From: Rickettsiales bacterium
GTDB taxonomy: Bacteria > Pseudomonadota > Alphaproteobacteria > Rickettsiales > UBA1997
NCBI GenBank assembly: GCA_018969185.1
Contig: JAGWYT010000004.1
Span: 1 to 61,102 of the forward strand
Length of the DNA: 61,102 nt
Direction of reading: 5' to 3'
Below the pieces are notes generated by a model. That model did not search any database and was not told where the DNA came from. It was given only the letters and a program-made list of their open reading frames with translations. A program made the translations under genes and the position numbers. Shown one piece after another: positions 1-44,085 of this stretch; the stretch's first letter is position 1, and each line of letters opens with the position of its first letter.

Positions 1-177
<177 letters not shown>

Positions 178-183
178 AATTAT

Positions 184-2605: not shown

Positions 2606-3380
2606 AAATAAAATTTTAAAGCCAGAAAATCATGATGGGTTGCATTTGGATGTGGTGGAAATTTTTCCAACGCTTCAAGGTGAAGGGCCTTACGTGGGCT
2701 ATCCATCTGTGTTTGTGAGGCTTGGTGGCTGTAATTTGGCTTGTGAATTTTGTGATACAGAATTTGAAAATTATAAAAATTTTTCTCTATCAGAAATTTT
2801 AGATGAAGTGAGAAAATTAGCAAAAAATGATGAAGGAAAAATAGTTAGGAATTTAGTTGTGATAACTGGTGGAGAGCCTTTGCGTCAGCCAATAGAGCTC
2901 TTTTGCGAAGAGTTGGTAAAATCAGGATTTTTAGTGCAAATTGAAACTAATGGAACTTTATTTCGTGAATTACCAAAAGAAGTGAAGATTATTTGTTCGC
3001 CAAAAATTTCTAATGGTAAATATCATTCAATCAGACCAGATTTGCTTGCACGCATAAATGCTTTTAAGTTTATAGTGCGTAATCCACATTCTTGTCATCT
3101 CGAGCATAGCGAGAGATCTCTTCCAATCTCACGAGATTCTTCGCTAACAATCGCTAAAAGCGATTGTAAAGCTCATGATGACGGAGGGGGAGATAAAGAA
3201 AATTATTCTGAAATTATGGAGGTTGGTCAGTCAAAATTTAAAACTCCGGTTTATGTGCAACCGATGGATGAATATGATGAAGTTAAGAATAAAAAGAACT
3301 TACAATATGCTGCAGATTTATGCCAGAAACATGGTTATTTGCTTTCAATTCAACTGCATAAAATGCTTGGCTTAAAATAA
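2595..3380 (+). CDS. queE: 7-carboxy-7-deazaguanine synthase (radical SAM), with in-frame palindromic insertion
   Basis: EIFPTLQGEG, CNLACEFCDT (CxxxCxxC), VVITGGEP, IETNG, SIQLHK; ATG at 2595 overlaps the upstream stop region. Confidence 0.93.
   Translation: MFGKNKILKPENHDGLHLDVVEIFPTLQGEGPYVGYPSVFVRLGGCNLACEFCDTEFENYKNFSLSEILDEVRKLAKNDEGKIVRNLVVITGGEPLRQPIELFCEELVKSGFLVQIETNGTLFRELPKEVKIICSPKISNGKYHSIRPDLLARINAFKFIVRNPHSCHLEHSERSLPISRDSSLTIAKSDCKAHDDGGGDKENYSEIMEVGQSKFKTPVYVQPMDEYDEVKNKKNLQYAADLCQKHGYLLSIQLHKMLGLK
3093..3183 (+). repeat. Family-1 palindromic element (RPE/REP-like), in frame inside queE
   Basis: TGTCATCTCGAGC...GAGATTCTTCGC-TA-ACAATCGC-TAAAA-GCGATTGT-AAAGCTCATGATGACG, 91 bp, homologous to the copies at 6043 and 32716. 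Confidence 0.9.
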
Positions 3381-3438
3381 ATTTAAGTTTAGTTTGTTTT
3401 TATATTAACCGCATTTTATTAGTCCTAAAATAAACAAT

Positions 3439-4350
3439 ATGCAAAGAATCAAAAAGCGACAGGCTTTTTCTTTGATTGAATTATCTATAGTGATATTGGT
3501 GGTGGGAATCCTAGTTGCTGGTGTAATGCAGGCTAGTAGCATGATGATTAAATTTCAATTACAAACTGCAAGGTCTTTGACTAATAGCTCTCCAGTTTCA
3601 TCAATTAAGGATTTAGCATTATGGCTTGAAACAACTTCAGAGAGTAGTTTTTCTGGTTCTTACCCGGATAATTTGGATAGAATTGGTACGTGGAGAGATA
3701 TTAATTCGCAAGTTGGAATTAGAAATGATGCCACTCAAACCACAGGTTCTCTTCAGCCATATTTTTATGAGAATGTAATTAATGGCTTGCCCGGAATGTA
3801 TTTTACGCCTTCTACAAACCAAATAATGAATGGGACTTCTCCAATAAACTCAAAAAATTCTAATGGGTCTTTTTCGTTTTTCTTGGTTGCGCTATCTAAT
3901 CAAACAGGAAATTTTCAAACGCCATTTGATACAGGAACATGGAATAGTCAGGGATGGGCGTTTAATAAATTACAATCAGCTTGGAATAATGAATTGAGAT
4001 TTCTTATTTGTCGTAGTGCTGGCTGTGCTGCTCCTGGAACTGCAACTTATGCGCCAGACAATGTTATTCAAATATATTCTGCTGTGTTTGATGATAATAG
4101 TAAATTATGGTATTACATAAATGGTGGTACGCAAACTTTTACCCAAACTGGTTTAGGCACTATTTTAACAGCTACATCTGGTTATAGAGTGGGCAATGAT
4201 CAAGGTTGGATAAATGCGACTGTTAATGCAGCGTGGCGTGGTTATATTGGTGAAATTATTGTTTATAACCGCGCTCTTAAAACTGAAGAAAGAAGGGCAG
4301 TTGAGAAATATCTTGGACAAAAATGGAAGATTGCGGTGGTTGAAACGTAG
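3439..4350 (+). CDS. Type IV pilin-like protein (class III signal) with C-terminal LamG/ConA-like domain
   Basis: KKRQA|FSLIELSIVILVVGILVAG N-terminus; LWLE, GYIGEIIVYNRALKTEERRAVEKYL C-terminal jellyroll signature. Confidence 0.8.
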   Translation: MQRIKKRQAFSLIELSIVILVVGILVAGVMQASSMMIKFQLQTARSLTNSSPVSSIKDLALWLETTSESSFSGSYPDNLDRIGTWRDINSQVGIRNDATQTTGSLQPYFYENVINGLPGMYFTPSTNQIMNGTSPINSKNSNGSFSFFLVALSNQTGNFQTPFDTGTWNSQGWAFNKLQSAWNNELRFLICRSAGCAAPGTATYAPDNVIQIYSAVFDDNSKLWYYINGGTQTFTQTGLGTILTATSGYRVGNDQGWINATVNAAWRGYIGEIIVYNRALKTEERRAVEKYLGQKWKIAVVET

Positions 4351-4355
4351 TTTAT

Positions 4356-4832
4356 TTACCACTTATCAGGGCCTAAGATTCTAAATAAATTTTCAACCGC
4401 TTTTTCTATCATATTGTAAACTTCTGTGATGTCAGAATGCGAGCCATAGTAAGGGTCAATTAATTCATCATGCCATGAATTTTGCACTTTACAGAATTCA
4501 AGAAGTAATTTTATTTTTATATGATATTGTGGTTCTGCCATTGCAAGTAGATGACTCCTATGATCTTTAGTCATCGCAAGAATTAAGTCATATTCTTTGA
4601 AATCTTTATTTTCTATTTGTGTTGCAAAAATATTATCAAAAGAAACGCCGCGTTCTTTTCCAATTTTAACAACTCTTGAGTCTGGGCGTTCCTGATGATA
4701 AAAAACTTTTATTCCTGCTGAGGCAAAAGTTAATTTATTTTCAACATGTAGAATTTTTGCCTTATGGCGGGCAATAGCTTGCGCTGTGGGTGAGCGGCAA
4801 ATATTTCCAGTGCAAACAAATAAAATTTTCAT
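4356..4832 (-). CDS. Low-molecular-weight protein-tyrosine phosphatase, paralog 2
   Basis: P-loop VCTGNICRS and DPYYG. Confidence 0.92.
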   Translation of the reverse strand: MKILFVCTGNICRSPTAQAIARHKAKILHVENKLTFASAGIKVFYHQERPDSRVVKIGKERGVSFDNIFATQIENKDFKEYDLILAMTKDHRSHLLAMAEPQYHIKIKLLLEFCKVQNSWHDELIDPYYGSHSDITEVYNMIEKAVENLFRILGPDKW

Positions 4833-5290
4833 ATTATTTTGAAGAGTTTTTCAATAGCAATTTCAATAATATCAAATACATCAAGAAATTCTTTATAGCT
4901 ATGATAATAAGGGTCAACAACTTCATCATGCCATGAATTTTTTGTGTCACAAAATTCCAAAAATAATTTTATTTTATGATGATGATTTGAAGGTGAAATT
5001 CTAAGTAAATGCTTGAGATGTGATTTATCCATCGCAAAAATTAAATCAAAATTCTCAAAATCTTTGTCAGTTATTTTGCGAGAAAAAATATTATCACAAG
5101 AAATCCCTTTATCTTTGCAAGCCTTGACAGACCTTTGATCTGGGCTTTCACCACTGTGATAGCCTTCAATTCCCGCAGAATCAAAAATAAATTGATTTTC
5201 AACTTTTAGCTCTTTTGCTTTATGCCTTGCTATTGCGTGTGCTGTTGGTGAACGACAAATATTTCCAGTGCAGACAAAAAGAATTTTCAT
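4829..5290 (-). CDS. Low-molecular-weight protein-tyrosine phosphatase, paralog 1
   Basis: P-loop VCTGNICRS, DSAG, DPYY. Confidence 0.92.
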   Translation of the reverse strand: MKILFVCTGNICRSPTAHAIARHKAKELKVENQFIFDSAGIEGYHSGESPDQRSVKACKDKGISCDNIFSRKITDKDFENFDLIFAMDKSHLKHLLRISPSNHHHKIKLFLEFCDTKNSWHDEVVDPYYHSYKEFLDVFDIIEIAIEKLFKII

Positions 5291-6018
5291 TGATTTATTA
5301 TTTCAGCAAAATGCTTTTTTAAGGAAGATCTTGGAATTTCATATATATCACCAGCCTTTAAAGTTCCTAAAGAGAAAGGTCCGTAAGAGGTGCGAATAAG
5401 ACGATTTACCTTTAGTCCAAGTGCCTCCATAACTTTTCTAATTTCACGATTTTTTCCTTCTTCTAGCGAAATTGTCAGCCATGAATTTGATTCTTTTTCA
5501 ACATCAATTTCTACTTTAATTGAGCCATAGCGAACTCCATCAACAGTAATTCCATTAACTAATTTTTTTAATCTTTCGTGATTTAATTTTCCAAAAACAC
5601 GGGCGCGATATTTACGATCTAATTTATTTCTTGGCAATTCCATGTGACGAGAAAGTGCGCCACTGGTTGTGAATAATAAAAGTCCTTCAGTGTTGTAATC
5701 AAGCCTGCCGATGGTAATTACGCGGGGCATGTTTTTTGGTAATAAATCAAAAACGGTTTTACGACTATGTGGATCTTTAGTTGTTGTTAAAACACCTTCA
5801 GGTTTGTGAAATAAAAAGAGACGAACTTCCTGTTTGGCATTAATTAATTTATTATCAATCTTGATTGAATGATCAGTAATAAAGGTGGCGGGGCTTGAAA
5901 TCAATTCACCATTTACTTTTACACGTCCTTGCTTGATCAATTCTTCAGCTTCGCGGCGTGAGCAATAGCCTGAATCAGCAATTACTTTTGCGATTCTTAT
6001 GCCTTTTTCGTTTGTCAT
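5287..6018 (-). CDS. rluB: rRNA pseudouridine synthase, RsuA/RluB family
   Basis: N-terminal S4 domain (RIAKVIADSGYCSRREAE) and catalytic GRLD. Confidence 0.8.
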   Translation of the reverse strand: MTNEKGIRIAKVIADSGYCSRREAEELIKQGRVKVNGELISSPATFITDHSIKIDNKLINAKQEVRLFLFHKPEGVLTTTKDPHSRKTVFDLLPKNMPRVITIGRLDYNTEGLLLFTTSGALSRHMELPRNKLDRKYRARVFGKLNHERLKKLVNGITVDGVRYGSIKVEIDVEKESNSWLTISLEEGKNREIRKVMEALGLKVNRLIRTSYGPFSLGTLKAGDIYEIPRSSLKKHFAEIINQ

Positions 6019-6042
6019 ATCTGTTTGCTAAATTTGTTATAG

Positions 6043-6133
6043 TGTCATCCTGAGTCATAGATTTTCTTTTAGAAAATCTTGGCGAAGGATCTCATGCGTT
6101 TGAAAGAGATCCTTCGCTGCGCTCAGGATGACG
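6043..6133 (-). repeat. Family-1 palindromic element overlapping the 3' end of the C26 peptidase gene
   Basis: CGTCATCCTGAGCGCAGCGAAGGATCTC...GAGATCCTTCGCC-AAGATTTTC-TAAAA-GAAAATCT-ATGACTCAGGATGACA on the minus strand, 91 bp. Confidence 0.9.
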
Positions 6134-6889
6134 GCAGGATTTATATTCCTTTGCCGCTTTAATAAAACTTTCAAAAATTCTTTTATCAGCTTCCGACACT
6201 TCAAACTCTGGATGCCATTGCACGCCAAGACAGAAAGGATGATCAGATTTTTCAACTGCTTCAATAACGCCGTCAGAAGCATTAGCGCAAACTTTTAAAT
6301 TACTTCCAGCACATTTCACAGCTTGATGATGGCTGGAATTAGTCATGATTTTTTCTTCGCCAATTATCGAAAATAATTTACTATCTTTAGCAACCTTAAC
6401 TTCATGATAACCAGTGCGATAATCACTAAAACCATCAATATGGCTTTGTTCATGATCCATTAGATTTTGTTCATCAGGAATATGTTGAATAACCTTGCCT
6501 TTATGAAGCAAGTTAATTAGCTGCATGCCATTACATATGCCAAAAAATGGAATTTTAGTTTTTATTAATTCTGATCCAAGGGCATGTTCAAAATTTTCTC
6601 TGATATCATTTAATTTTACAGTGTGATGAATTTCTTTTTCGCCATATCTTTTTGGATTAATATCAAAATATCCACCCACAATCATTACTCCGTCAAGTGA
6701 TTCAAGATAAGAATCAATTAAATCATAATCATAAGTTAAAATAACAGCAGCTCCTCCTGCCTTATTGATCATTTCAACATAATTAGCGCGCAAAGCATAA
6801 TAATTTTTAACAGAATATCCATTAGGACATCCGTCTTTATAGTCAGGAACGATTCCAATTAAAGGGCGTAAAGATTTCTTACCTATCAT
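6092..6889 (-). CDS. Gamma-glutamyl-gamma-aminobutyrate hydrolase-like protein (peptidase C26)
   Basis: FGICNGMQ nucleophile elbow, NSSHHQAV, GVQWHPE catalytic His-Glu. Confidence 0.9.
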   Translation of the reverse strand: MIGKKSLRPLIGIVPDYKDGCPNGYSVKNYYALRANYVEMINKAGGAAVILTYDYDLIDSYLESLDGVMIVGGYFDINPKRYGEKEIHHTVKLNDIRENFEHALGSELIKTKIPFFGICNGMQLINLLHKGKVIQHIPDEQNLMDHEQSHIDGFSDYRTGYHEVKVAKDSKLFSIIGEEKIMTNSSHHQAVKCAGSNLKVCANASDGVIEAVEKSDHPFCLGVQWHPEFEVSEADKRIFESFIKAAKEYKSCRHPERSEGSLSNA

Positions 6890-6891
6890 TT

Positions 6892-8124
6892 TTATTTAGA
6901 GGAATTATAATTTTCAATTGCCGAAGCAAGAGCAGCAAGCCTTGCAATTAAAGAATAAATTTCTGAAATTTTATTTTTTTCTAATCCAACTTGAAGTTGA
7001 GAATTAGATAAATTTTCAAGATCAAAAAAACTGGCGCCAGCAGCATTTAAGCTAATTTTTTCATCACGTGCTTCATTAGCGCGAAATAGATTTCCAACCA
7101 CTTGAGCGTTAATCATGTAAATCATTGGCTCAGCAATTTTTCCATCAATTTTATCTATTGTTTTTATTCCTTCTTGAACCATGATTTGTGTGGTTTTCAC
7201 AGAGCCTTTAAGCATGTCCATTTTATTGCGCTCTTTTTTATTTATATGCAAAACATCTTCACCAGAAAAAACTGGCCACACCGCAATTCCGTAAGTGCCA
7301 TTGTCAGCTTTAATATAGCAATAAGGCTCATCATCAATGCCATATTTTTGATATTTATTTTTTAACTCAGCAATAATTTCATCAACATATTTTGCTAAAC
7401 ATTTTAAACCAGTTTGCTCTTTAAAATCTACGTCGTGACATGATCTGTGAGTTGAAGAAATAAGCCACGGATCGATGTCTAAAATTTGTGCTAACTCTTT
7501 GGCAATTTGATTATAAATATCGAAATGCGCTGATTTTGTTCTGTTGTGCCAGCCCATATTTTTAGATGGAACAATAGGAGTTGCGCAGTTTTCTAAAATC
7601 TCAGGAATTCCTGAGGTTAGATCGTTATTTAGCACAATTACGTCGGCAATAAATCCATCGATAGTTGTGATTTTTCCTGAATTATTTGCAACCGGATGAA
7701 GAGTTATGGAGCCTCCATTTTCAAGATCAATTGCGGTTTTTTCTTTAATTTCTTCAAGCAAAGTGCCAATAACCACTTCTCTTTTCGCAGAAATAACTTC
7801 TGTTAAATCAGCAATATTTTGTAGATAGCGTAAATTACGTGTATGACTTTCAGGAATGATTATAATTTTCTTTGCATCAGAAAAATTTTTATCAAAAAAA
7901 TCATCAGCAATTATTTTTGCTTTTTCTTTTGAGACTTTAGAAAGATTGTTAAAACCTGCAGGAAAGCAGTTGGTGTCAATTGGTGCAATCTTTATGCCAT
8001 TGTGACGTAAATCAACTGAATTATAAAATAACGCTGGAGTTTTGGCGAATTTTTCTTTAAACCAATTATCAATTAAAGCGCGATTATTTTCAATTTTTGT
8101 TAATAAAATTTCAGTTATATTCAT
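6892..8124 (-). CDS. gshA: Glutamate--cysteine ligase (Rickettsia/betaproteobacterial GshA type)
   Basis: FYNSVDLRHNGIKIAPIDTNCFPAGFNNL, IKADNGTYG, QEG, AEPMIYM. Confidence 0.88.
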   Translation of the reverse strand: MNITEILLTKIENNRALIDNWFKEKFAKTPALFYNSVDLRHNGIKIAPIDTNCFPAGFNNLSKVSKEKAKIIADDFFDKNFSDAKKIIIIPESHTRNLRYLQNIADLTEVISAKREVVIGTLLEEIKEKTAIDLENGGSITLHPVANNSGKITTIDGFIADVIVLNNDLTSGIPEILENCATPIVPSKNMGWHNRTKSAHFDIYNQIAKELAQILDIDPWLISSTHRSCHDVDFKEQTGLKCLAKYVDEIIAELKNKYQKYGIDDEPYCYIKADNGTYGIAVWPVFSGEDVLHINKKERNKMDMLKGSVKTTQIMVQEGIKTIDKIDGKIAEPMIYMINAQVVGNLFRANEARDEKISLNAAGASFFDLENLSNSQLQVGLEKNKISEIYSLIARLAALASAIENYNSSK

Positions 8125-8126
8125 TT

Positions 8127-8411
8127 TTAGTTGGTAAAATTTTCAGCGTAAGATTTCTGTTTTATTGTTGAATCATTTGGTTCAAAAACTTCATATTCAA
8201 AACCTTCGCTCTTCGCATATTCAATTGCTGTCTCTTTTGAATCAAAGAAAAATTTTAATTGAGTTTCTGTTTTATCAGATGAAGTCCAACCCATTAAAGG
8301 ATTGAGTTCTCGTGTTTTATTTTCTTCAAATGGAACCATTAACCATTTTTTATTTTTTGCTCTACCAGATTGCATTGCTGATTTTACTGGTTTGTAAATT
8401 TTTACTTTCAT
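8127..8411 (-). CDS. ETC complex I subunit (NDUFS4 homologue)
   Basis: KIYKPVKSAMQSGRA, NPLMGWTSS, LKFFFDSKETAIEYA, KSYAENF. Confidence 0.88.
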   Translation of the reverse strand: MKVKIYKPVKSAMQSGRAKNKKWLMVPFEENKTRELNPLMGWTSSDKTETQLKFFFDSKETAIEYAKSEGFEYEVFEPNDSTIKQKSYAENFTN

Positions 8412-8429
8412 GTGTTTATAAAATTAATT

Positions 8430-10181
8430 TTATTCAGATATTGCAACACCTTCACGTCTTGGATCAGAACCACCTTCAATATTATCATTGTTAATTGTAA
8501 TGGCATTGATACCGCTGACAATTTCAATTTCTTTGGTTTTATGGCCCATTTTTTCAAGCTTTGATTTTAGATTTACGATATCACGATTTTTTTCAAGTTC
8601 AATCACATTATTTAAAACTACGAATGACGCTAGTGAAATGGCATTTTGAATATCAAGTTTGAAATCAAGATGGTTGATAATTGCTTTTGCAATAAATTGA
8701 ATAATGCGTGGTCCTCCTGGAGAACCAACAATCATCAATAATTTTCCTTTATTATCAAAAACAAATGTTGGAGCCATAGAGCTGCGTGGTTGCTTATTCG
8801 GCGCTAAAGCATTAGCAACTTTTTTGCCATTTTTTACTGGTTCAAATGAGAAATCAGTTAATTGGTTGTTAAGCAAGAAGCCATCAACTGAAAGGGCTGA
8901 GCCAAAGAAATATTCAATTGAATTAGTCATTGAAACGGCGTTACCCATTTCATCAATTACCGATAAATGTGTGGTGGAAGGCAATTCAACTGCTTTATTA
9001 TCAACAATTAAATTTTTATCATTAACTGCAAATTTTCCTGGTAAAACTTCTTGCATCGCGGTTTCTTGGTTAATAAGAGCGGCGCGTTTTTTGAGATATT
9101 CTTTATTTAATAATTCATTCACAGGAACATTAGCACTATCTGCAATATACTCAGCGCGGTCGGCATAGGCAAGACGAGTTGCTTCAGTAATTAAATGAAC
9201 TGTTTTTAGAGAATTAGGTTTCATTTTTGATAAATCAAAATTTTCTAATATTCCCATTATCTCTAATAAAGTCACGCCTCCAGAAGGCAGTGGCATAGTA
9301 CATATTTTGTAAGATTTTCTATAATCTTCACATAGTAAATCTCCTTTTTTGACCTTATAATTTTTTAAATCAGAAAGTGATAAATAACCCGGATTTATTG
9401 GAGATTGTGCCACCGCACTTGCAATATCATTTGCAATTTTTCCCTTATAAAAATCATCAATGCCATTATTCGCAATTTTTGTTAGAGTTTTTGCTAATTT
9501 TTTATTAGTGATTTTCTCACCAACTTCATAGGGTTTACCATCAGGTTTTAAGTATATCTCAGCACTTTCTTTAAAATCTTTTAAATAGGAAATTTCTTTT
9601 GATAAATTGTGAAATCTTTCACTAACAATAAATCCGTCATTAGCAATTTTTATTGCTGGTTGAAATAAATCTTTGAAAGGAAGTTTGCCATATTTTTTAT
9701 GTGCTTCAAACATCATTTTTAAAAGCCCTGGAGTGCCAACTGACAATCCTCCACGCACAGCATCAGAAAATTCTCTAGGCTTTCCCTCGTTATTTAAAAA
9801 AATATCACTTTTAGCATTTTTTGGTGCGGTTTCGCGGCCATTAAAATAAATTGTTTTGCCAGTTTTTTTATCATAATAAAGCATGAAGCCACCACCGCCA
9901 ATACCTGAGGAATGTGGTTCAACAACATTTAAAACTAAAGAAGTTGCAATTGCAGCATCAATTGCGTTTCCCCCAATAGCTAAAATTTCTGCACCAGCTT
10001 TGCTTGATAATTCGCTTCCTGAAGAAACCATATATTTTTTTGCTTTTACAAGAGAAAGATCGCGAAAGCCAGAATCAGGCTCACCAACCCATGTGTCAGA
10101 GAGATCAAAATTTTTAGCGATTGCATCTTGTAAGAAAAACATGCTAAAAATTACAAAGAAAAATAATGAATGTTTTTTCAT
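8430..10181 (-). CDS. ggt: Gamma-glutamyltransferase
   Basis: Signal peptide, GGNAIDAAIA, SGIGGGGF, autocleavage site TTHLSVID, PRSSMAPT, GSPGG. Confidence 0.95.
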   Translation of the reverse strand: MKKHSLFFFVIFSMFFLQDAIAKNFDLSDTWVGEPDSGFRDLSLVKAKKYMVSSGSELSSKAGAEILAIGGNAIDAAIATSLVLNVVEPHSSGIGGGGFMLYYDKKTGKTIYFNGRETAPKNAKSDIFLNNEGKPREFSDAVRGGLSVGTPGLLKMMFEAHKKYGKLPFKDLFQPAIKIANDGFIVSERFHNLSKEISYLKDFKESAEIYLKPDGKPYEVGEKITNKKLAKTLTKIANNGIDDFYKGKIANDIASAVAQSPINPGYLSLSDLKNYKVKKGDLLCEDYRKSYKICTMPLPSGGVTLLEIMGILENFDLSKMKPNSLKTVHLITEATRLAYADRAEYIADSANVPVNELLNKEYLKKRAALINQETAMQEVLPGKFAVNDKNLIVDNKAVELPSTTHLSVIDEMGNAVSMTNSIEYFFGSALSVDGFLLNNQLTDFSFEPVKNGKKVANALAPNKQPRSSMAPTFVFDNKGKLLMIVGSPGGPRIIQFIAKAIINHLDFKLDIQNAISLASFVVLNNVIELEKNRDIVNLKSKLEKMGHKTKEIEIVSGINAITINNDNIEGGSDPRREGVAISE

Positions 10182-10246
10182 AGCGATTTTAAAAGTTAGG
10201 AAGTGTTTACTAGCCTAGTTAAATTAATGATTTATTCAAGAAATTT

Positions 10247-11086
10247 GTGTCCTCTTCTAATCTACAAATAATTCTAAAAGAGCTTAAACAATCTGACTAT
10301 AATTCTTATCTATGCGCCACTTTTTCTTTGCGTGAGGATTTAGAAAAAGTTGCTGCTATTCTTTTACTACAAAATGAGTTAAAGAAAATTTTTGATATTG
10401 CCTCTGAAGATATGGTTGGCATGGTTAGGATTGCATGGTGGAGAGAAAATCTAGAAGAGATTTTTTTGCAAAATAAAAAGAAAAATCATCATCTTTTAGA
10501 AGTGATTTATGATTTAAAAAACGATATTGACTATGATCTTCTAAAGCAAGCTTTAGAAGGTTTTGAAAGTGATTTTAATTCAGAGAAAAAATTTAAAAAT
10601 AAAGCAGAATTAGAGGAATATATTTTTAAAACTAGAGAAATTTTTTTCTTAATTATTTTGAGGCTTTTGAATTTTAGAGATGAGTTCTTGGGAAAAGAAT
10701 TAGCAAGGAATCTGGCTATAATCTCATTTTATTTTGATTTATTGCAAAAAATAAAAAATGAAGATGAAAAAGTAACAAGATTTTTTTATGATGGTTTTTT
10801 TTCTGAGTTAAAAATTGAGGCTAAATTTTGGCAGGAAAATAATATCAATAAAAAATATGATGAGAATTTATTGGTGATTGTAGAACATGTTGTAACGCGG
10901 GTGGAAGAAGCTTGCAATAGTATTGATAAAATTAGAAAATCATTGCCAAAAAATCTAAAAAATTTAATTACTAAAAAAGATTTAGCGGAGATTCTACTTT
11001 GTAATTTACGTAAGAAAAATTTTGATATTTTTACAAGTGACTTATTGGCAAAGTCTTTTGTAACGAAGATTAGATTGTTGTTGTAA
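10247..11086 (+). CDS. Squalene/phytoene synthase-like protein (NDUFAF6 homologue)
   Basis: LKQSDYNSYLCATF, EDMVGMVRIAWWRE; GTG start. Confidence 0.65.
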   Translation: MSSSNLQIILKELKQSDYNSYLCATFSLREDLEKVAAILLLQNELKKIFDIASEDMVGMVRIAWWRENLEEIFLQNKKKNHHLLEVIYDLKNDIDYDLLKQALEGFESDFNSEKKFKNKAELEEYIFKTREIFFLIILRLLNFRDEFLGKELARNLAIISFYFDLLQKIKNEDEKVTRFFYDGFFSELKIEAKFWQENNINKKYDENLLVIVEHVVTRVEEACNSIDKIRKSLPKNLKNLITKKDLAEILLCNLRKKNFDIFTSDLLAKSFVTKIRLLL

Positions 11087-11198
11087 ATCTTATCCGCTGG
11101 TTGAGCGAAGTCGAAACCAAGGATAAGATTATTCAGTTTCTCTTGGTTTTGACACTTCGTCAAGCTTAGTGCGGCGCATGCTCAAGGCGCGAGAAACT
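11086..11198. repeat. Family-2 REP-like inverted doublet; second unit lies in the ccmF 3' end
   Basis: AATCTTATCC-GCTGGTTGAGCGAAGTCGAAACCAA-GGATAAGATT followed by an inverted, expanded unit AGTTTCTC...GAGAAACT. Confidence 0.85.
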
Positions 11199-13096
11199 AA
11201 AATCCCCACCATCATAGCACTAAAAATCATGGCGCAGCCAATCCAGATTAAATAAATAAATGGTTTGATATAAATTCTTAAAGCAAAAAAACCATTTTCG
11301 TCTTTTTGTCCCATTACCAAATAAATGTCACCAAAAATTCCACTTTTAATTGCTGCTTCATTTGTTGTTTGATTGGAAGTTGGATAGAAGCGAAGTTGTG
11401 GCACCAACAATACATGAGGCTTGCCATCTTTTTTTACTTCAAACATACCTTCTCTAGCAAGAAAATTTGGTCCAATTTGATAGCCAATTTTGCTGAACTT
11501 TATATCATAATTTGCAATTGATACTGATTCATTTTCTCTAATATTTAATTCTTTAACTTTGTCAAAAGATGAGGTTAAAATAACGCCAATTATTATAAGT
11601 AGAAAGCCAAGGTGAGCCATTGTTACTGGTAGCTGCGAAATGGCATTGGAAAAGTTATTTTTAAGAACTTTACTAAAAAATAAAATTGTAATTATTGCGG
11701 CAAAAATTGCTAAAAATAAAATTGTAATTTGCGATAATCTGACATCTTTCTCATAATAAAATCCTATAGAAGTAATGGCGGCTGAAATCAGGCAAATCAG
11801 AGTGTTTTGACGATTAATTATTTTTTCTTTAGCAGTTTTATTTGAATAATTTAAATGATAAGAAATCGCTAAAAATAATAAAAATGGAATGATTAAAATT
11901 GTAAGCAATTTATTGTAATAGCTTGGCCCAATTGAGATGAATTGGTTAAAAAAACTTTGTGAGAAAATTGGATAAAGTGTGCCAAGAAGAACGATGAATA
12001 AAGATAGAATCAAAAAATAATTATTAACTAAGATTGCCCCAATTTTTGACAGCAAATGAAACTCACTTTTTTCACTTTTTAATTTTGGTAATTTGTAACA
12101 AAAGATTAGCATCGCGATGCCACCAATCAAAGTAATTAGAGCAATTACAAAGAATCCACGTTTGGCATCAATTGCAAAAGAATGAACGGAAGTTAGAATT
12201 CCAGAACGCACTAAAAAAATTCCAAGTAGGCACAAAATAAAAGTTAGAATTGCTAAGAAAGAACTCCAGATTTTAAAAATTTCTTTTTTCTCAAGTATTT
12301 TTAAAGCGTGAACTAAAGCGGTTGCAGCAAGCCATGGCATTAGAGAAATATTTTCTACAGGATCAAAAAACCAATATCCGCCCCAACCAAGCTCACGATA
12401 TGCCCACCAAGCACCAAGACCAATTCCTAAAGTTAGAAAGCCATAAGCAAAAAATAACCAATTCTTTAAATATCTAGCAAAATCTTGATTAATTTTTTCA
12501 CATAAAAGTGAGGCAAGCGCAAAAGAAAAAATTAGAGAGAAGCCAATATATCCAGTGTAAAGCATTGGAGGGTGCATGGCAAGACCAATATCTTGTAAAA
12601 TTGGATTTAAGCCAAGACCTTCATGTGGCATTGGAAAGATGCGTTTAAAAGGATTTGAAGTAAAAGCGGTGAAAGCAGCAAAAGCGCTGATAATAAAGGA
12701 TTGTGAGGCAATTGTAATGAGCTTTTTTTTATCATCACATTTACTTAAAAAAGCAAAAGCTAATGTATAAGTTGTCAGTATTGTGATGAGCAGCAACATT
12801 GACCCTTCATGGTTTCCCCAGCTTCCAGAGATTTTGTAAATTAAAGGTTTCAGATGATGAGAATTATAATAAACATTTGAAACTGAATAATCAGAAATTA
12901 TGAAGGAATAAATCAGACAAGATTGTGAGAGAAGAGCGGAAACAAAAAGTAAAATAATTAAAATTAACGAGATTTTTTTAAGCTCAGAAATTTTGATTTT
13001 TGACTTTTCTTGTAGTGAAAAAAAAGTAAAAAATGGCAAAAATAAACCAATTGTGAATACTGCTAATAGTAATGTAAAGCCAATGGTTGGAATCAT
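11129..13096 (-). CDS. ccmF: Cytochrome c-type biogenesis heme lyase
   Basis: WGNHEGSMLL, GLNPILQD, HPPMLYTGY, tryptophan-rich WAYRELGWGGYWFFDPVEN, SVHSFA. ATG at 13096 is preferred because the ORF-track start at 13129 lies in a repeat. Confidence 0.95.
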   Translation of the reverse strand: MIPTIGFTLLLAVFTIGLFLPFFTFFSLQEKSKIKISELKKISLILIILLFVSALLSQSCLIYSFIISDYSVSNVYYNSHHLKPLIYKISGSWGNHEGSMLLLITILTTYTLAFAFLSKCDDKKKLITIASQSFIISAFAAFTAFTSNPFKRIFPMPHEGLGLNPILQDIGLAMHPPMLYTGYIGFSLIFSFALASLLCEKINQDFARYLKNWLFFAYGFLTLGIGLGAWWAYRELGWGGYWFFDPVENISLMPWLAATALVHALKILEKKEIFKIWSSFLAILTFILCLLGIFLVRSGILTSVHSFAIDAKRGFFVIALITLIGGIAMLIFCYKLPKLKSEKSEFHLLSKIGAILVNNYFLILSLFIVLLGTLYPIFSQSFFNQFISIGPSYYNKLLTILIIPFLLFLAISYHLNYSNKTAKEKIINRQNTLICLISAAITSIGFYYEKDVRLSQITILFLAIFAAIITILFFSKVLKNNFSNAISQLPVTMAHLGFLLIIIGVILTSSFDKVKELNIRENESVSIANYDIKFSKIGYQIGPNFLAREGMFEVKKDGKPHVLLVPQLRFYPTSNQTTNEAAIKSGIFGDIYLVMGQKDENGFFALRIYIKPFIYLIWIGCAMIFSAMMVGILVSRALSMRRTKLDEVSKPRETE

Positions 13097-13113
13097 ATAT
13101 AAGAAAAGAATTA

Positions 13114-13217
13114 AATCCTCCGTCCTCACTTCGTTCGGACACCTCCTTTTTACTTAAAATTTATTTTTTTTTAAGTAAGAAGTTGCAATTTGCTAAAGCA
13201 AATTGTCAAAGGAGGTT
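13114..13217. repeat. Family-3 nested palindrome
   Basis: AATCCTCCGTC-hairpin-GACACCTCCTTTT-[TACTTA...TAAGTA-AGAAGTT-GCAATTTGC-TAAA-GCAAATTGT]-CAAAGGAGGT; near-identical at 22547 and 58121. Confidence 0.88.
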
Positions 13218-13227
13218 GTAAGGGATT

Positions 13228-14634: not shown

Positions 14635-14715
14635 GTTTATAATATGGATAAAAATTTGATTTTTTTGTCGTAACCCTATAGTTAATGTTGCAACATAGTA
14701 AATTTTTCTAAATTA

Positions 14716-15669: not shown

Positions 15670-15670
15670 A

Positions 15671-17056: not shown

Positions 17057-17155
17057 AGACAGATAATTTTATTAGGAGTTTCATCATGAACTTGTTTTAG
17101 GATTTTAGAACAACAACGTTATAACTAATTAATTTAAAAACGCGAATTTTTATTC

Positions 17156-18295: not shown

Positions 18296-18296
18296 G

Positions 18297-19074: not shown

Positions 19075-19101
19075 TTTAGATATATTGTTTAAAAAAAACT
19101 A

Positions 19102-29105: not shown

Positions 29106-31208
29106 TTATCCCCCACTTACCATTTTCAAGCATTCATCATAATTAAAAAGCTGCAGTAATTCACGATATTTTTTACTTTCGGGGAATTGTAATTTTTCAT
29201 CTTTTTGCAAAATTACCTCAGCATTTTTGTGAGCAATTTTTAATAAATCATTATCAAAATTTAAATCTGCAATTTTAAATTCTGGAAAACCGCTTTGTTT
29301 AGTGCCAAGTAATTCGCCACTTCCCCGCATTTTTAAATCTTCTTCAGCAATAAAAAATCCATCATTTGAATCACGTAAAATTCCAAGTCTTTTCTTACCA
29401 TTAGCACCATATTTTTTTCCGTAAAGTAAAATGCAGTAAGATTTTTTCTCTCCTCTTCCAACGCGTCCACGTAATTGATGTAATTGCGAAAGTCCAAAAT
29501 GTTCGGCATTTTCAATTACAATTATTGTGGCGTCACTTACATCAATTCCAACTTCAATCACTGTTGTTGCAACCAATATTTTCAAGCATCCATCGCTTTT
29601 AACAAATTCACTCATCACTTTTTCTTTTTCTGATTCTTTCATTTTTCCATGAAGCAATCCGGTTTTTTCTTGACCAAAAATTTTTACTAACTCTTGATGT
29701 TTTTCTTTTACACTTCTAAGTCCGTTGGCTTCTTTTTCTAAATTATTTTCATCAATGATTTCTTCTTCAATTGCGGGACAAATAAAATAAATTTTTTCAC
29801 CTTGTGCAATCGCTCTTTTCAAGCTTTCATAGATTTCGTCAGATTTATTTGATGACATTATTAACGTCTCAATTTTTTGACGATTTTTTGGTTTTTCGTT
29901 TAAAATTGAAATATCCATATCGCCATATAGACCCATCATTAGGCTACGTGGAATGGGCGTTGCGCTCATTAATAAAGTGTCAACTTCTTGACCTTTTTCA
30001 ACTAATTTTAACCTTTGCATTACACCAAAACGATGTTGTTCGTCAATTATAGCAAGACCAAGATTCTTAAATTTCACATCATCTTCTAAAACCGCGTGAG
30101 TGCTGATTAGAATGTCAATTTTTCCTTCAGATAAATCTTGTAAAATTTTGTTTTTTTGTTTTTTTGTTGTGGTGCCAATCAAGAGCTCAACATTGATATT
30201 TAGGCCTTCAAGAAGCTTTTGAAAATAAATAAAATGTTGTTTTGCTAAAGTTGTAATTGGCACAATCACGCAGGCTTGCTTATTTTGTGAAATGGCAAGA
30301 AGACAAGCAAATATTGCCACCACAGTTTTTCCACTACCAACATCTCCTTGCAAAAGACGTAACATTTTTTTACTTGAAGCAATATCATTTTTTATTTCCA
30401 ACATCACTTTATGCTGTGATTTTGTAAGCTCAAAAGGCAGTGAGGTTAAGAATTCGTCAGCTAAATTTTTCGTAAAATTTATTTTTGTTTTATTTTGAAC
30501 ACCTTGTTTTTTCGCTAAAAGAATTGCAATTGACCAAGCTAAAAACTCATCATAGGCAAGGCGTTTTCTTGAATCATCTTTGAAAAAGGATGTTTCAAAG
30601 TAATGTAAATTTTTCATTGCCTCAAAAAATCCATTCCAATTTTTTTGCTTTATCAAACTCACATCAATCCACTCTTCAAGGGGTTTTTCCTTCTCACATA
30701 AAATCAAAATTTCTTTAATTTTATTACGTAAAAATTTTTGTGTAATAGCGTAAGAAAGCGGATAAATGACATTTATTTTTGGTAATTTTTCAATATCCTT
30801 AGCATCAATAATTTCTTGCGGATGAACAATTTGATTCTCACCAGATGATTTTTGTAAATTCCCTAAAACCGCAATTTCTCTACCTATTTTAAGCTTTTCA
30901 ATTTGCCCGGGAAAAGTTTTAAAAAAAACCAAAGAAAAATATCCGGTTGGAGTATAGCAAATTATTTTGTGTGGTTGCCTTGAATTTGCTGGTTTTACGT
31001 GTGATTCAATTTTTGCTTTTATAATAATTAATTCATCATTTTGTACTTCAAAAAGGCGAGGGCAGAAGGAAATATTTTCAATACGAAGTGGTTTTATCAA
31101 CAACAGATCAAAAATTCGATCACGAATTGTTAGTCTTAAAAGTGATTTATGAATTACTGTGCCAACACCTCTTAAAACTGATAATGGCTGTAGTAATATT
31201 TTATGCAT
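29106..31208 (-). CDS. recG: ATP-dependent DNA helicase RecG
   Basis: OB/wedge domain, QGDVGSGKT, DEQHRFG, MSATPIPR, QLHQLRGRVGRG, DLKMRGSGELLG. Confidence 0.97.
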   Translation of the reverse strand: MHKILLQPLSVLRGVGTVIHKSLLRLTIRDRIFDLLLIKPLRIENISFCPRLFEVQNDELIIIKAKIESHVKPANSRQPHKIICYTPTGYFSLVFFKTFPGQIEKLKIGREIAVLGNLQKSSGENQIVHPQEIIDAKDIEKLPKINVIYPLSYAITQKFLRNKIKEILILCEKEKPLEEWIDVSLIKQKNWNGFFEAMKNLHYFETSFFKDDSRKRLAYDEFLAWSIAILLAKKQGVQNKTKINFTKNLADEFLTSLPFELTKSQHKVMLEIKNDIASSKKMLRLLQGDVGSGKTVVAIFACLLAISQNKQACVIVPITTLAKQHFIYFQKLLEGLNINVELLIGTTTKKQKNKILQDLSEGKIDILISTHAVLEDDVKFKNLGLAIIDEQHRFGVMQRLKLVEKGQEVDTLLMSATPIPRSLMMGLYGDMDISILNEKPKNRQKIETLIMSSNKSDEIYESLKRAIAQGEKIYFICPAIEEEIIDENNLEKEANGLRSVKEKHQELVKIFGQEKTGLLHGKMKESEKEKVMSEFVKSDGCLKILVATTVIEVGIDVSDATIIVIENAEHFGLSQLHQLRGRVGRGEKKSYCILLYGKKYGANGKKRLGILRDSNDGFFIAEEDLKMRGSGELLGTKQSGFPEFKIADLNFDNDLLKIAHKNAEVILQKDEKLQFPESKKYRELLQLFNYDECLKMVSGG

Positions 31209-31305
31209 TATTAATTTATTTCTTTTTAAAGATTAGCGCAGGAACTGACTTGTAGTCCGTTCCTCATGTTCATTAAAAATTAAGACGTTCTTGCAGTGGA
31301 GAAAT

Positions 31306-31740
31306 TTAATCTTCCCCTCTTTGTTTGCGGCGATTATCATCTCTTTCTTTAATCGCCTCTCTTTTATCATAAAGTTTTTTGCCACGTCCAATTCCAACCA
31401 AAACCTTAGCAAAATTTTTTTTGTTAAAATAAATTTTTAGAGCAAGAGCAGAGTAGCCTTTGCTATTCATTTTACCGACTATTTTTTCTAATTGTTTTTT
31501 ATGTAATAAAATTTTTCTTGGACGTTTTGGTGCATGATTAAACTTGCTTGCACCCTTATATTCATTGATATTGGCGTTAATTAGAAATAACTCTCCCTTA
31601 CTTTCAGCAATATAACTTTCAGCAATGCTGGCTTTACCTTCTCTTAAAGATTTTACTTCACTTCCAAGCAGCATGATTCCTGCTTCAATCTCTTCTTCTA
31701 TGGTAAAATTAAATCTGGCTTTTCTATTTAGGATTTCCAT
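31306..31740 (-). CDS. smpB: SsrA-binding protein
   Basis: NRKARFNF, EAGIMLLGSEVKSLR, RKILLHK, GKKLYDKRE. Confidence 0.96.
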   Translation of the reverse strand: MEILNRKARFNFTIEEEIEAGIMLLGSEVKSLREGKASIAESYIAESKGELFLINANINEYKGASKFNHAPKRPRKILLHKKQLEKIVGKMNSKGYSALALKIYFNKKNFAKVLVGIGRGKKLYDKREAIKERDDNRRKQRGED

Positions 31741-32000
31741 TATTTATATATAGTGCTTCTATGTCCAATATCGATAATAATAATGATAAGTTCGTTCTTT
31801 TTAATCTCACAAACTATTCGATAATCTCCGACTCTATATCTCCAAAATCCTTTAAGATTAGCAGATAAAGCTTTACCAAAGTTTTCAGGATTTTTGCTAT
31901 TAGAGATTTTATTTAGATAGTTGTAAATCTTTTCTTGAGAGATGCGATCTAATTTCTCTAGAGATTTTAATGATTGTTGGTGATATTGAATTTTCCACAT
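31740..32000 (-). CDS. relE: Type II toxin, RelE/StbE family
   Basis: NPENFGKAL, GFWRYRVGDYRIV, IGHRSTIY. Confidence 0.9.
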   Translation of the reverse strand: MWKIQYHQQSLKSLEKLDRISQEKIYNYLNKISNSKNPENFGKALSANLKGFWRYRVGDYRIVCEIKKNELIIIIIDIGHRSTIYK

Positions 32001-32021
32001 TTCTTATGCAAAATTGGTGTT

Positions 32022-32258
32022 TTAACTCTTTTTCTTAAAGCCTAAACTTTCCCAAACTTCATCATGACTAAGCAATATATTGGGATTTTTTTCATATTCA
32101 TTTTTAGCTTTTAAAGCAGCTTTTACATCACGCCATTCTTCCAATTTGTCAATTAAAGCTCTTTTTATAAACCATGATTTGGTGCGGTCTTGTTCTTCGC
32201 AAAGCTGTTCAAGTTCTTCATTTAGCTCATCTGGCAGTCTAAAAGTAACTGTTGTCAT
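32022..32258 (-). CDS. Type II antitoxin, ribbon-helix-helix (RelB/StbD-like)
   Basis: TVTFRLPDEL beta-ribbon, RTKSWFIKRAL, acidic C-terminus; lies directly upstream of the toxin. Confidence 0.85.
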   Translation of the reverse strand: MTTVTFRLPDELNEELEQLCEEQDRTKSWFIKRALIDKLEEWRDVKAALKAKNEYEKNPNILLSHDEVWESLGFKKKS

Positions 32259-32295
32259 AAGTTGTATTTTAAATATTAATAGTATTAACGGTATT

Positions 32296-32324
32296 AATTG
32301 TAATACAATTCTTATTTAAGTCAA
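32296..32324 (-). promoter_or_regulatory. Toxin-antitoxin promoter with overlapping operator palindrome
   Basis: Minus strand TTGACT-N16-TACAAT; inverted repeat AATTGTA-A-TACAATT (32296-32310) covers the -10, as expected for RHH autorepression. Confidence 0.65.
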
Positions 32325-32332
32325 GGGACGAA

Positions 32333-32427
32333 AAAACTTCTCTCACCTTGAGCTTGTGACAAACCAAGAGAAGTTTTGTACTTAATTTTACTCTTGGTTT
32401 CGATAGGCTCAAGGCGCGGATAAGATT
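32333..32427. repeat. Family-2 REP-like inverted doublet
   Basis: AAAACTTCTC-TCACCTTGAGCTTGTGACAAACCAA-GAGAAGTTTT then an inverted unit ending GGATAAGATT. Confidence 0.82.
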
Positions 32428-32434
32428 ATGTGCT

Positions 32435-34771
32435 TTAAGTATTTATTAATGTTCCAGTTTTTTCTATATTTATCCAAAATGCCATAATTCTGATTAAATA
32501 TTCATTATCATCACCTTTAACAAAATAATCACTCATGCCAACGTTAAAGAAGTGGTGCAGTTTTTCAACTTCGCTATCTCCTGTAAAGGCAATTATTGGA
32601 GTTTCTTTTAAATTATTTTCTTTCTCATATTTTCTAATTTCAACTGTTGCCTCATCACCATTAACCTTATACATGTTGATGTCAGTGATGATTAGGTCGT
32701 AAGCACAACTACCACTGTCATCCTGAGCTCTACAGTCGCTTTTAGCGACTGTGAGCGAAGGATCTCTTTCAATTTCATTAGATCCTTCGCTACGCTCAGG
32801 ATGACAGGTGTATGATTCAGGATGACCAGAAAAAGAAGCCTTATATTTTTCCACTAGATCTTGTCCATCTGCCACTTTCTCCACTACAGCACCAAATTTT
32901 TCAATATATTTAGCAAGCATTAAAAGATTGGTTCCTTCATCATCAGCCAATAAAACTTTTTTATCTTTTAAAATAATTTTCAAATCATCTAAAGATTTAT
33001 TCTTCAGAGGGTCATATTTAATTCCAACCCATTTCGCAACAATCTTGCTCAATAATTCTTTTTTGGTTGGTTTGACAAAATAGCCATCAGCGCCGGCAGC
33101 AATTGCTTTCTCTTTTGCATCAGTTAAATAAGAATAAGCAATAATTGGAATATCATGTCTTAATTTTCTGATTTCTCTTATTGCTTCAAATCCGTCCATC
33201 ACTGGCATTTCCAAATCCATCAAAACAAATTCATATGGTTTAATTCTATTATCTTCTTCGTGATCATAATAATTTTTTCTAACCATATTTACTGCTTCAG
33301 ATCCATCTTTTGCAATGTCACAAATGATATTAAGATTTTTTTCTAAAATTGATTCTTCAATTAATAAATTAACTTGCTCATCATCAACAATTAGAATTTT
33401 TTTCTTCCCTGCTTCAACAGGGTCAAGCTTTGCTTGTTTTAATTCTTCTTCGCTTAGAATTGGAAATAATAAACTAAATTTAGTCCATTTTTTTAATTCA
33501 GATTCGCAAATAATATCTCCACCAAAAGCAATCATATTTCTTTTGCAAAAGGCAAGACCTAAGCCAGTTCCACCTTTTTTGCCTGAAGTATAAAAGTCAC
33601 CAAATAATTTAGGAATAATGTTTTCAGGAATTCCAGGGCCAGTATCTTGAACATAAATTACATTATAATTTTCCCCTTCATAAGCTCTTTGTTCAACGCC
33701 AATTGTAACGACAGAATCAGGATAATCTTTTAAATAATAAAGCGCATTTTTTAGGAGATTATAAATAATAAAAGTAAATCTTTCTGGGACTACTTTGAAG
33801 GTGAAATCATTATCAGAGTTTAATTTGAGGATTATTTTTGATTTTTCGTTTTCTTCCTTATAGCCGTAGTTTTCTACAATCTTAGGGATAATAACAGATG
33901 GTGATAAGTAAGAAAGATCGCTAGAATTAATCGATTTTTCTCCAAGATCATTTAAAATAATATTAATTATATTATTGGCTCCATCTATTGCTCGCGATAT
34001 TTTAGAAGCTAAGGCTGCTAGTTGTTGAGTTTGAGAGCCTGACAATGCATCATTAGACTTTTTATTTCCTTTATTTATTTCAGATAAAGTGGCACTTATT
34101 TGATTCCCAATTAAATTAATGGTGTTTAATGGATTGCGAATTTCATGTGCGATAGATCCAGCAAGAGATCTGATAATTGTCATTTTGGCTTTAACCGCTA
34201 TACCTTTTGTATTACAGTAGCTGAAAGCATATCCTATAAAAATTGCGAAACCAAATAGAGGTACGTATGTAACAAGAAGATGATCATTTAAGATTATCAA
34301 TTCTGGATGGGTTATACTACAATATGTGATAGCACCAAGTGTTCCAATTAGGAAATTTAAGAACAAAATGATAGGATTTGGAAGGAGCATGGCACAAAAA
34401 ATTATACATGCCATCATACCGCAAGACCAACTTAGAGAGAAGTCGTTTAAAATAAACAGGGTGGTAAAGCAAAATGAAAGATTATAACAAACTGCACAAA
34501 ACCAATAGAGTTTAACGTGTTTTTTTAAATGCTGAGGCCAGAATTTAAACAATAATAAAATTACAGAAACAAAAAACCCAATTGCTCTTAATTTAAGATC
34601 TTCGTATTTCTGTGGATCAATATATGACCAAAGAAACCAGTAAGCTGGGTGTCCGAAAGCTCCAGCAATACCAAGAACATAGAAATTATAATCTACAACT
34701 TGATCCTTGTCTAAGAAATTATTTTTATACCAGCTTTTTAAACGGTATTTTATAAGTGTAGCGGTTTTCAT
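32435..34771 (-). CDS. CqsS/LqsS-type hybrid sensor kinase HK1 (6 TM, HisKA, HATPase, two receiver domains)
   Basis: GHPAYWFLWSYIDPQKYEDLKLR is similar to Vibrio CqsS GFPAYYFIWEYWFPQxYENLGLR; AGSIAHEIRNPL; GLGLAFCKRNMIAFGGDIICES; two DD-D-S/T-K receivers. ATG at 34771 lies 1 nt after the ketosynthase stop. Confidence 0.9.
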   Translation of the reverse strand: MKTATLIKYRLKSWYKNNFLDKDQVVDYNFYVLGIAGAFGHPAYWFLWSYIDPQKYEDLKLRAIGFFVSVILLLFKFWPQHLKKHVKLYWFCAVCYNLSFCFTTLFILNDFSLSWSCGMMACIIFCAMLLPNPIILFLNFLIGTLGAITYCSITHPELIILNDHLLVTYVPLFGFAIFIGYAFSYCNTKGIAVKAKMTIIRSLAGSIAHEIRNPLNTINLIGNQISATLSEINKGNKKSNDALSGSQTQQLAALASKISRAIDGANNIINIILNDLGEKSINSSDLSYLSPSVIIPKIVENYGYKEENEKSKIILKLNSDNDFTFKVVPERFTFIIYNLLKNALYYLKDYPDSVVTIGVEQRAYEGENYNVIYVQDTGPGIPENIIPKLFGDFYTSGKKGGTGLGLAFCKRNMIAFGGDIICESELKKWTKFSLLFPILSEEELKQAKLDPVEAGKKKILIVDDEQVNLLIEESILEKNLNIICDIAKDGSEAVNMVRKNYYDHEEDNRIKPYEFVLMDLEMPVMDGFEAIREIRKLRHDIPIIAYSYLTDAKEKAIAAGADGYFVKPTKKELLSKIVAKWVGIKYDPLKNKSLDDLKIILKDKKVLLADDEGTNLLMLAKYIEKFGAVVEKVADGQDLVEKYKASFSGHPESYTCHPERSEGSNEIERDPSLTVAKSDCRAQDDSGSCAYDLIITDINMYKVNGDEATVEIRKYEKENNLKETPIIAFTGDSEVEKLHHFFNVGMSDYFVKGDDNEYLIRIMAFWINIEKTGTLINT
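32716..32806 (-). repeat. Family-1 palindromic element, in frame inside HK1 receiver 2
   Basis: TGTCATCCTGAGCGTAGCGAAGGATCT...AGATCCTTCGCTC-ACAGTCGC-TAAAA-GCGACTGT-AGAGCTCAGGATGACA, 91 bp, plus a partial GTCATCCTGAA stub to about 32826. Confidence 0.92.

Positions 34772-41321: not shown

Positions 41322-44085
<2,764 letters not shown>

Follow-up and report, generated by a model that had tools for sequence, protein, structure and literature searches.

This work concerns a short palindromic repeat of a Rickettsiales bacterium of the UBA1997 lineage, which lies both between genes and in frame inside unrelated proteins. It was noticed in a stretch of 61,102 nucleotides (contig JAGWYT010000004.1, positions 1 to 61,102, of assembly GCA_018969185.1), referred to below as the window. 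The element is a dimer of two hairpins placed head to head, each carrying a (C/T)GTC tag. We consider it probable, at odds of about three in four, that such dimers are the non-autonomous progeny of a unit in which a nuclease gene stands between two hairpins, and that the copies now found inside genes are survivors of a filter acting on frame, length and loop position.

Seven copies had been listed in a sequence-only reading of the window, and all seven exist, at the positions given there or no more than a few bases away:

3093..3182, minus strand (gene on the plus strand): in-frame copy in queE, a head-to-head dimer with its hairpin-bearing half on the minus strand, partly decayed
32716..32826, plus strand (gene on the minus strand): in-frame copy in the histidine kinase gene HK1, a 91-nt dimer (32716-32806) with one extra 21-nt terminal duplicate
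6043..6133, plus strand: copy overlapping the 3′ end of a C26-type amidotransferase gene (6092-6889, minus strand)
24107..24222, minus strand: intergenic dimer of 116 nt with an apical hairpin in both halves
46390..46478, no strand assigned: intergenic copy of a divergent sub-type, bounded by the same GTCATCC...GGATGAC frame and with a different inner hairpin
47670..47775, no strand assigned: intergenic dimer of a divergent sub-type, whose left hairpin is plain (GTCATTCTGAGCGCAGCGAAGAATC) and whose right half bears a long apical hairpin
58787..58842, minus strand: solo half, a single intergenic hairpin unit with an apical hairpin

The peptides quoted earlier for QueE and HK1 were recovered from the two in-frame copies. 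The non-coding copies, which had been placed at 24107, 46390, 47670 and 58792 (the last spanning 58787-58842), all occupy intergenic gaps, and the first three of them directly follow the stop codon of a gene. Chance is excluded as an explanation, since a 24-base core pattern matches the window 3 times, the expectation from 100 shuffles being 0.00; folding z-scores of single copies range from -5.5 to -10.9. Across the assembly (1.59 Mb, 32.8% GC, 69 contigs, 94% complete), an nhmmer profile built from three window copies found 110 loci at E<1e-3. This number is a lower bound because the divergent sub-types at 46390 and 47670 escape the profile. The loci fall into size classes of about 89 nt, 111-114 nt and, for solo halves, 55-60 nt. 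Neither the window nor any of four foreign loci had a match to an Rfam family at gathering score, a search of one copy at E<=10 gave noise only, and a literature search for the exact motif returned chance primer matches only.

Each half of the element reads (T/C)GTC, AT, CCT, GA, GC, an apex, GC, GA, AGG, AT, C. The unit is thus a short stem with a tandem G.A/A.G mismatch, an apex that is either a GNA triloop or a nested hairpin of 26 nt, and a returning stem. The nested apical hairpin, of which there are at least three sequence types, replaces the triloop in one or both units of a dimer, and this accounts for the two size classes, about 89 nt and about 111-114 nt. A strict pattern recovered 93 units, 40 with a 3-nt apex and 43 with a 26-nt apex.

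The pairing scheme was examined in an alignment of 27 one-hairpin copies (A3). Stems drawn within each half are 96.6% paired and include 15 pairs with changes on both sides, for example CG to UA at columns 12-52, 13-51, 78-94 and 79-93. When outer arms are paired with outer arms and inner with inner, no double changes occur in the resulting helices, and column pair 12-94 is left unpaired in 12 of the 27 copies (44%). The copy in the valyl-tRNA synthetase (ValRS) gene illustrates the point, with ATCTT/AAGAT in its left half and ATTCT/AGAAT in its right half. As compensation is found within halves and none between them, the unit is a hairpin measuring about 27 nt, and two such autonomous hairpins, (C/T)GTC-tagged and of the REP (repetitive extragenic palindromic) type, make up the element as a head-to-head dimer. 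The single palindrome of 91 bp originally proposed does not survive this comparison. It also makes a classical miniature inverted-repeat transposable element, that is, one long palindrome of terminal inverted repeats mobilised by a DDE transposase, very improbable: the size is in the expected range, and copies with identical halves do fold preferentially with long outer/outer pairing, but compensation is strictly confined to the halves, heterodimers break the long-range pairing, solo halves exist and no target duplication is seen.

At least ten of the 110 loci (about 9%) lie in frame inside proteins, where each adds a loop of 30-40 residues. All of these copies read CHPERSEGS...AQDD, so that a single orientation and frame is used, and the open reading frame (ORF) is antisense to the model orientation in 9/9 clear hosts compared. 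The earlier claim of in-frame insertion into unrelated proteins in one orientation and frame thus extends to the following hosts (with the HK1 paralogue HK2 added for comparison):

2595..3377, plus strand: queE, 7-carboxy-7-deazaguanine synthase, 261 aa; insert after the strand at residues 154-161, in a predicted disordered loop
32435..34813, minus strand: HK1, hybrid histidine kinase with two receiver domains; insert in receiver 2
35967..38111, minus strand: HK2, paralogue of HK1 (48% identity) with an empty site
ValRS: insert between the catalytic and anticodon-binding domains
Acetyl-CoA synthetase (Acs): insert in a loop of the C-terminal domain
TrmB: insert before the methyltransferase domain
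AddB: insert after the nuclease domain
AddA: decayed in-frame insert (L010, 3150-3281) made of two plain units and a decayed one
GltD-like oxidoreductase (1205 aa): internal insert
Two unknown ORFs: internal inserts

Both subunits of AddAB are therefore decorated, and the two plain right-hand units of AddA read ..ESLRCAQDN.. and ..EILRFAQDD.. In HK1 the insert occupies the loop before the YDLIITD strand, which carries the acceptor Asp of receiver domain 2, and the extra 21-nt unit encodes GHPESYT ahead of CHPERSEGS. Such extra terminal units, one or two in number, of 21 or 24 nt and consisting of the tag and 5′ arm, occur in 5/10 coding copies. Two further copies sit close to the N-terminus of their ORFs, in LptD and a DacA-like protein, where they may be upstream of the real start. 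Elsewhere the element ends genes: at 11 further loci an ORF of at least 150 aa has its stop codon within the copy, and in 9/11 this is the TGA of the terminal GTCATCCTGA. The C26-type amidotransferase, as had been stated, is one of the proteins closed by a copy in the same orientation and frame; its last 13 codons and stop come from the copy at 6043-6133 and end in ...CRHPERSEGSLSNA*.

The hosts could instead be pseudogenes, or the segment could be removed from RNA or protein so that no peptide is donated. This is highly unlikely. All hosts keep long intact frames through the insert, and an insert of 31 aa leaves no room for an intein or intron core. ValRS and QueE each have one full-length match in the genome and, ValRS being essential, the enzyme must function with its insert. 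In a comparable system, expression in R. conorii has been reported for proteins decorated by RPE-1, a Rickettsia palindromic element (RPE) (cited in PMC3733652).

Why unrelated proteins should receive the same peptide becomes clear from the consensus. Only one of its six frames is stop-free, xGT CAT CCT GAG ... GCT CAG GAT GAC, giving CHPE...AQDD, and reading in the opposite orientation runs into a TAG shortly ahead of the apical hairpin or within it. Counts across copies agree, with only frame '-2' commonly open. This openness is not general: 7/23 non-coding one-hairpin copies (about 30%) are open in that frame. Length acts as a second sieve. Measured from GTCAT to ATGAC, non-coding one-hairpin copies have a modal length of 88 nt (14 copies), which breaks the frame, while the nine measured coding copies are all 89, 110 or 113 nt, equal to 2 mod 3, and keep the frame of the host. 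Since the modal length is frame-breaking, the coding copies are a length-filtered subset, and the same peptide recurs in unrelated proteins because insertions that bear stops or break the frame have been removed by selection. The shared frame is a survival filter, not design. Of the coding-compatible selfish repeat proposed at the outset, the selfish-looking dispersed repeat stands, while the compatibility is survivorship.

Comparison with relatives indicates that the inserts are additions. Eleven QueE orthologues of the same genus, aligned as the sequence-only reading had suggested, are 222-225 aa long against 261 aa here, and all lack the inserted segment; the flanking pieces abut in 17/17 genus genomes that matched. 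The HK1 segment is absent from HK2, as claimed, and from all HK homologues found in 40 genus genomes, so that in the QueE and HK comparisons the inserts are species-specific. The alignment of QueE to the E. coli structure (6nhl) ends at residue 162, just before the insert, and an AlphaFold2 model shows a confident fold in which residues ~171-200 have pLDDT values of 33-41. The QueE insert is hence predicted to form a disordered surface loop. Inserts that could be located lie in loops or at domain edges. At this point, remodelling of proteins by the repeat is no more than a possibility.

The ValRS loop offers a view of the same site in many species. The short native form is found in 27 species of the genus; in the three that were read, 24 aa (..QENAV..) separate the anchors. 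Ten other species of the genus have an unsplit or longer match, and all ten were read. Together with the studied genome, they fall into four states (G, C and L numbers designate genomes, contigs and loci):

Same hairpin family as in the studied genome: G004, G018, G034 and the studied genome
Hairpin of the GACGGGG type: G011, G003
Third hairpin type: G033, G009, G001
About 8 extra residues of unclear origin: G050, G016

In a ValRS tree (204 aa), which is poorly resolved, empty species fall among occupied ones. A similar picture is seen for the C-terminal loop of Acs, which carries an apical-hairpin dimer in the studied genome (L001) and a plain hairpin dimer in the same frame in G003 (L179, G003:C19), and is empty in the closer relative G032 (L180). 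In G034 the ValRS insert (L221, G034:C138:1550-2605) has grown by 139 aa through in-frame arrays of element ends, a 30-nt unit repeated 8.7 times (98% matches) and a 39-nt unit repeated 2.7 times (100% matches). The near-perfect copies would indicate a recent expansion, although the contig is short and an assembly artefact is possible. These patterns suggest that element ends may have been active repeatedly, and that certain loops reflect either a target preference or strong permissiveness.

Repeated use of the same loops in sister species could also be taken to mean that the repeat has evolved to be coding-compatible, protein insertion being its strategy and a means of adaptive remodelling. 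One frame open across the consensus, together with at least 10 of the 110 loci in frame and 11 more supplying a stop codon, would fit such a strategy. We consider it unlikely, given the minority of non-coding copies that are open, the frame-breaking modal length, the predicted disorder of the QueE insert, the placement of located inserts in loops and at domain edges, and their species specificity.

In-frame dimers of the CGTC-REP/RPE kind and hairpins associated with Ssn nucleases have been described, and the element works like these. As the sequence-only reading had recognised, it behaves like RPEs: a palindromic repeat scattered over the genome occurs in intergenic DNA as well as within unrelated ORFs, always in a compatible frame. 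Compared at the DNA level, RPE-4 has the same layout, TGTCAT-stem-loop-stem-ATCC, a spacer and GGAT-stem-loop-stem-ATGACA. RPE-4 and RPE-6 belong to the same bacterial order as the studied element, are likewise about 90-96 nt in size and form head-to-head hairpins at intergenic and in-frame sites, and they and the studied element encode a peptide of about 31-32 aa ending in ..DD, owing to GGATGAC. The stems differ, CCTGAGC/GCGAAGG with a tandem G.A mismatch here versus CCCGTGG/CCACGGG in RPE-4. Unlike RPE-4 and RPE-6, the studied element has a nested apical hairpin, and its reading frame at the 5′ end is off by one base. RPE-1 DNA is unrelated to it in sequence. The models TIGR01045, TIGR03775, TIGR03777 and TIGR03776 (RPE1, RPE3, RPE4 and RPE5) have 0 matches in the genome, and no RPE family was found when inserts and host proteins were compared with NCBIfam; the RPE1 and RPE4 models do find matches in the order's Rickettsia-like genomes, which are rich in RPE-1 and RPE-4. 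The earlier wording, 'independent or related' to RPEs, can thus be made more precise: the element is not matched by these models and shares the tags and layout of RPE-4.

RPE-4 and RPE-6 (Ogata et al. 2002) have been equated with the CGTC-4 and CGTC-1 REP dimers, head-to-head dimers that lie in frame in R. conorii genes (Di Nocera et al. 2013, PMC3733652). CGTC-tagged REPs resemble the studied element in their CGTC/TGTC tag, in a stem starting with A-T then T-A, in forming mostly head-to-head dimers, in lying just 3′ of genes, and in intragenic dimers coding for 20-30 aa, with repair genes and tRNA synthetases frequent among the hosts (PMC3733652). Published CGTC families have stems of 8-9 bp with at most 1 mismatch, loops of 4-5 nt and a CCA tail (PMC3733652), unlike the studied element with its two internal G.A mismatches, 3-nt loop or 26-nt nested hairpin, and CTC tail.

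The inverted doublet also recalls REPINs, in which a pair of REP hairpins is the replicating unit and the gene of the partner enzyme, a RAYT, is bracketed by the same hairpins (Bertels and Rainey 2011, PMC3116915). That the element is a REPIN served by a RAYT (a tyrosine transposase of the IS200/IS605 type) is nevertheless extremely improbable: the tag is (C/T)GTC and not GTAG, no Y1_Tnp (PF01797) match exists in the genome, and the published CGTC-REP survey found neither a dedicated transposase nor any RAYT flanked by CGTC units (PMC3733652). The search for a partner enzyme in the genome covered RAYT, DUF559 and GIY-YIG proteins. The DUF559 loci (C65:135100-135570 and C52:54950-55560) carry hairpins of the CCCCTTGAGGGG type, which belong to a different family, and DUF559 was set aside. 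In contrast to REPIN/RAYT systems, the candidate partner here is a GIY-YIG nuclease.

The 91-nt form with the apical hairpin is nearly confined to this species, and the plain hairpin has a patchy distribution across both genus and order. The pattern GATCCTTCGC-NNN-GCTCAGGATGAC, often in inverted doublets, matches at least 120 stretches of contigs from one genome per species, the phyla among the matches listed being Acidobacteriota, Chloroflexota, Bacteroidota, Planctomycetota, Bacillota, Omnitrophota, Saccharibacteria and Proteobacteria. In 120 of these loci, where long spurious ORFs abundant in high-GC DNA bear on any count of in-frame copies, clustering of ORFs gave one small family, present in six loci and composed entirely of GIY-YIG proteins of about 100 aa. 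The hairpin directly adjoins or brackets the GIY-YIG ORF in 5/6 of them (L093, L025, L067, which is from Hymenobacter glaciei, L123 and L125); in the sixth (L110) it lies about 1 kb away, and this locus carries canonical NTS hairpins. In a Rickettsiales relative (L166), an attc-variant of the stem stands at an Ssn-type gene.

A profile of the six proteins (A1) has strong homologues in 26/36 genus genomes and in 12/24 other families of the order. Of twelve homologues inspected, nearly all stand between inverted units of the form GTCAT...hairpin...ATCC, whose stems vary. The canonical NTS sequence of Neisseria is among these units, as is, in G058, the attc-variant of the studied stem type. The profile also matches genes flanked by canonical NTS (L157, L161, L110), and the bracketed GIY-YIG genes are small, single-domain genes of the cd10448 type. 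SsnA is a site-specific nuclease of single-stranded DNA which binds a hairpin and cuts upstream of it (PMC11893778). The NTS-ssnA-NTS layout resembles an insertion sequence, mobility being a hypothesis there (Chenal et al. 2025, PMC11893778). NTS and SRM hairpins share with the studied element the (C/T)GTCAT tag upstream of a hairpin ending in ATC and occur in hundreds of copies (PMC11893778); the studied hairpin type likewise brackets Ssn-family genes, in other genomes only. About 9% of the studied loci are in frame inside genes, versus 2% of NTS inside genes in N. meningitidis (PMC11893778).

From these observations, the copies are most likely the non-autonomous progeny of a unit of the hairpin-ssn-hairpin type, spreading through inferred single-stranded DNA hairpin intermediates; that SsnA cuts single-stranded DNA next to such hairpins (PMC11893778) would support this step. 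As the assembly holds no ssn gene, the family has probably been orphaned, or was served in trans in the past. Insertions would land everywhere in the genome, and those persisting inside genes would be the ones that present the stop-free orientation and frame, add a multiple of three bases and fall in a permissive surface loop or domain junction. The hydrophilic peptide of about 31 aa, predicted to be disordered, would be a by-product.

Several observations weigh against this origin. To our knowledge, the mobility of Ssn-flanked hairpins has never been demonstrated. The A1 profile has 0 matches in the studied assembly, although absence of ssn is not proven by an assembly that is 94% complete; the sole GIY-YIG domain found in the genome is the C-terminus of a MutS-V protein (MSH1-like; L155, C21:22576-25764, ORF 1-1758). 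In the genus, some genomes rich in the hairpin are without ssn (G004, G005, G034, G025), and many that are hairpin-poor by BLAST carry it; co-occurrence is a weak test, since the hairpins at those ssn genes are of other variants. The published degenerate SRM pattern has 0 hits in the genome, the canonical NTS matching this pattern and the studied hairpin failing it, and neither a target-site duplication nor a clear target motif is evident in the flanks of the copies.

The same reasoning may reach the Rickettsia elements. In five Rickettsia-like genomes, RPE-4 counts of 48/34/45/68/0 run parallel to 3/6/5/5/0 remnants of ssn homologues, G153 having neither. The remnants (L205-L210; G093, G059, G135, G117) are mostly pseudogenes with several stops, and are bracketed by RPE-4-like and NTS-like (CGTC-tagged) hairpins. 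We tentatively propose, at somewhat less than even odds, that RPE-4, RPE-6 and the studied family are all non-autonomous offspring of hairpin-ssn-hairpin units, that Ssn is their missing mobilising enzyme and that the amplification of element ends is a footprint of cleavage and repair at the tag. The literature search found no paper linking SsnA and RPEs, and the Ssn paper mentions neither RPEs nor in-frame copies (PMC11893778).

Other repeats are present in the window. At 13141-13221, 22579-22659 and 58149-58197 there is a second family of hairpin repeats (CTCCTTTTTACTTA...CAAAGGAGG), which contains two AT-rich sub-hairpins; repeats of this type flank the DUF559 gene that stands free on contig C52 (54950-55560), and the sub-hairpins resemble the apical hairpins of the studied element, which hints at module sharing. 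A third repeat (..ATCTTATCCGCTGGTTGAGCGAAGTCGAAACCAAGGATAAGAT..), of the hairpin type with a GAGCGAAG core, lies at 11066-11130, 24934-24998 and 24979-25045 / 32337-32403 (88% identity). The 16S rRNA gene ends at the start of the window (1-178), and the 23S and 5S genes are 41 kb away (41325-44306); an unlinked rRNA operon is usual in Rickettsiales.

Because it matches neither the SRM pattern nor the RPE models and departs from the CGTC definitions, the element is a variant outside the named families. What is new here is this variant, with its tandem G.A stem and nested apical hairpin, lying outside both published patterns and very widely distributed, together with the demonstration that frame and length act as filters, the hot-spot loops in which element ends are amplified in frame, and an explicit link between RPEs and Ssn. 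Protein-coding palindromes are extended beyond Rickettsia to an uncultured Rickettsiales genus, and the donation of the same peptide is explained by a one-in-six frame filter and a length filter. A very widespread hairpin type has been missed by both published search patterns, yet brackets Ssn nuclease genes, and a link is drawn between the work on RPEs, on CGTC-REPs and on Ssn/NTS, three literatures without mutual citation in this respect. Loops of ValRS and Acs that are occupied repeatedly, and element ends that amplify in frame, provide material for working out the mechanism of insertion, and the inserts bear on how much disordered sequence essential enzymes tolerate.

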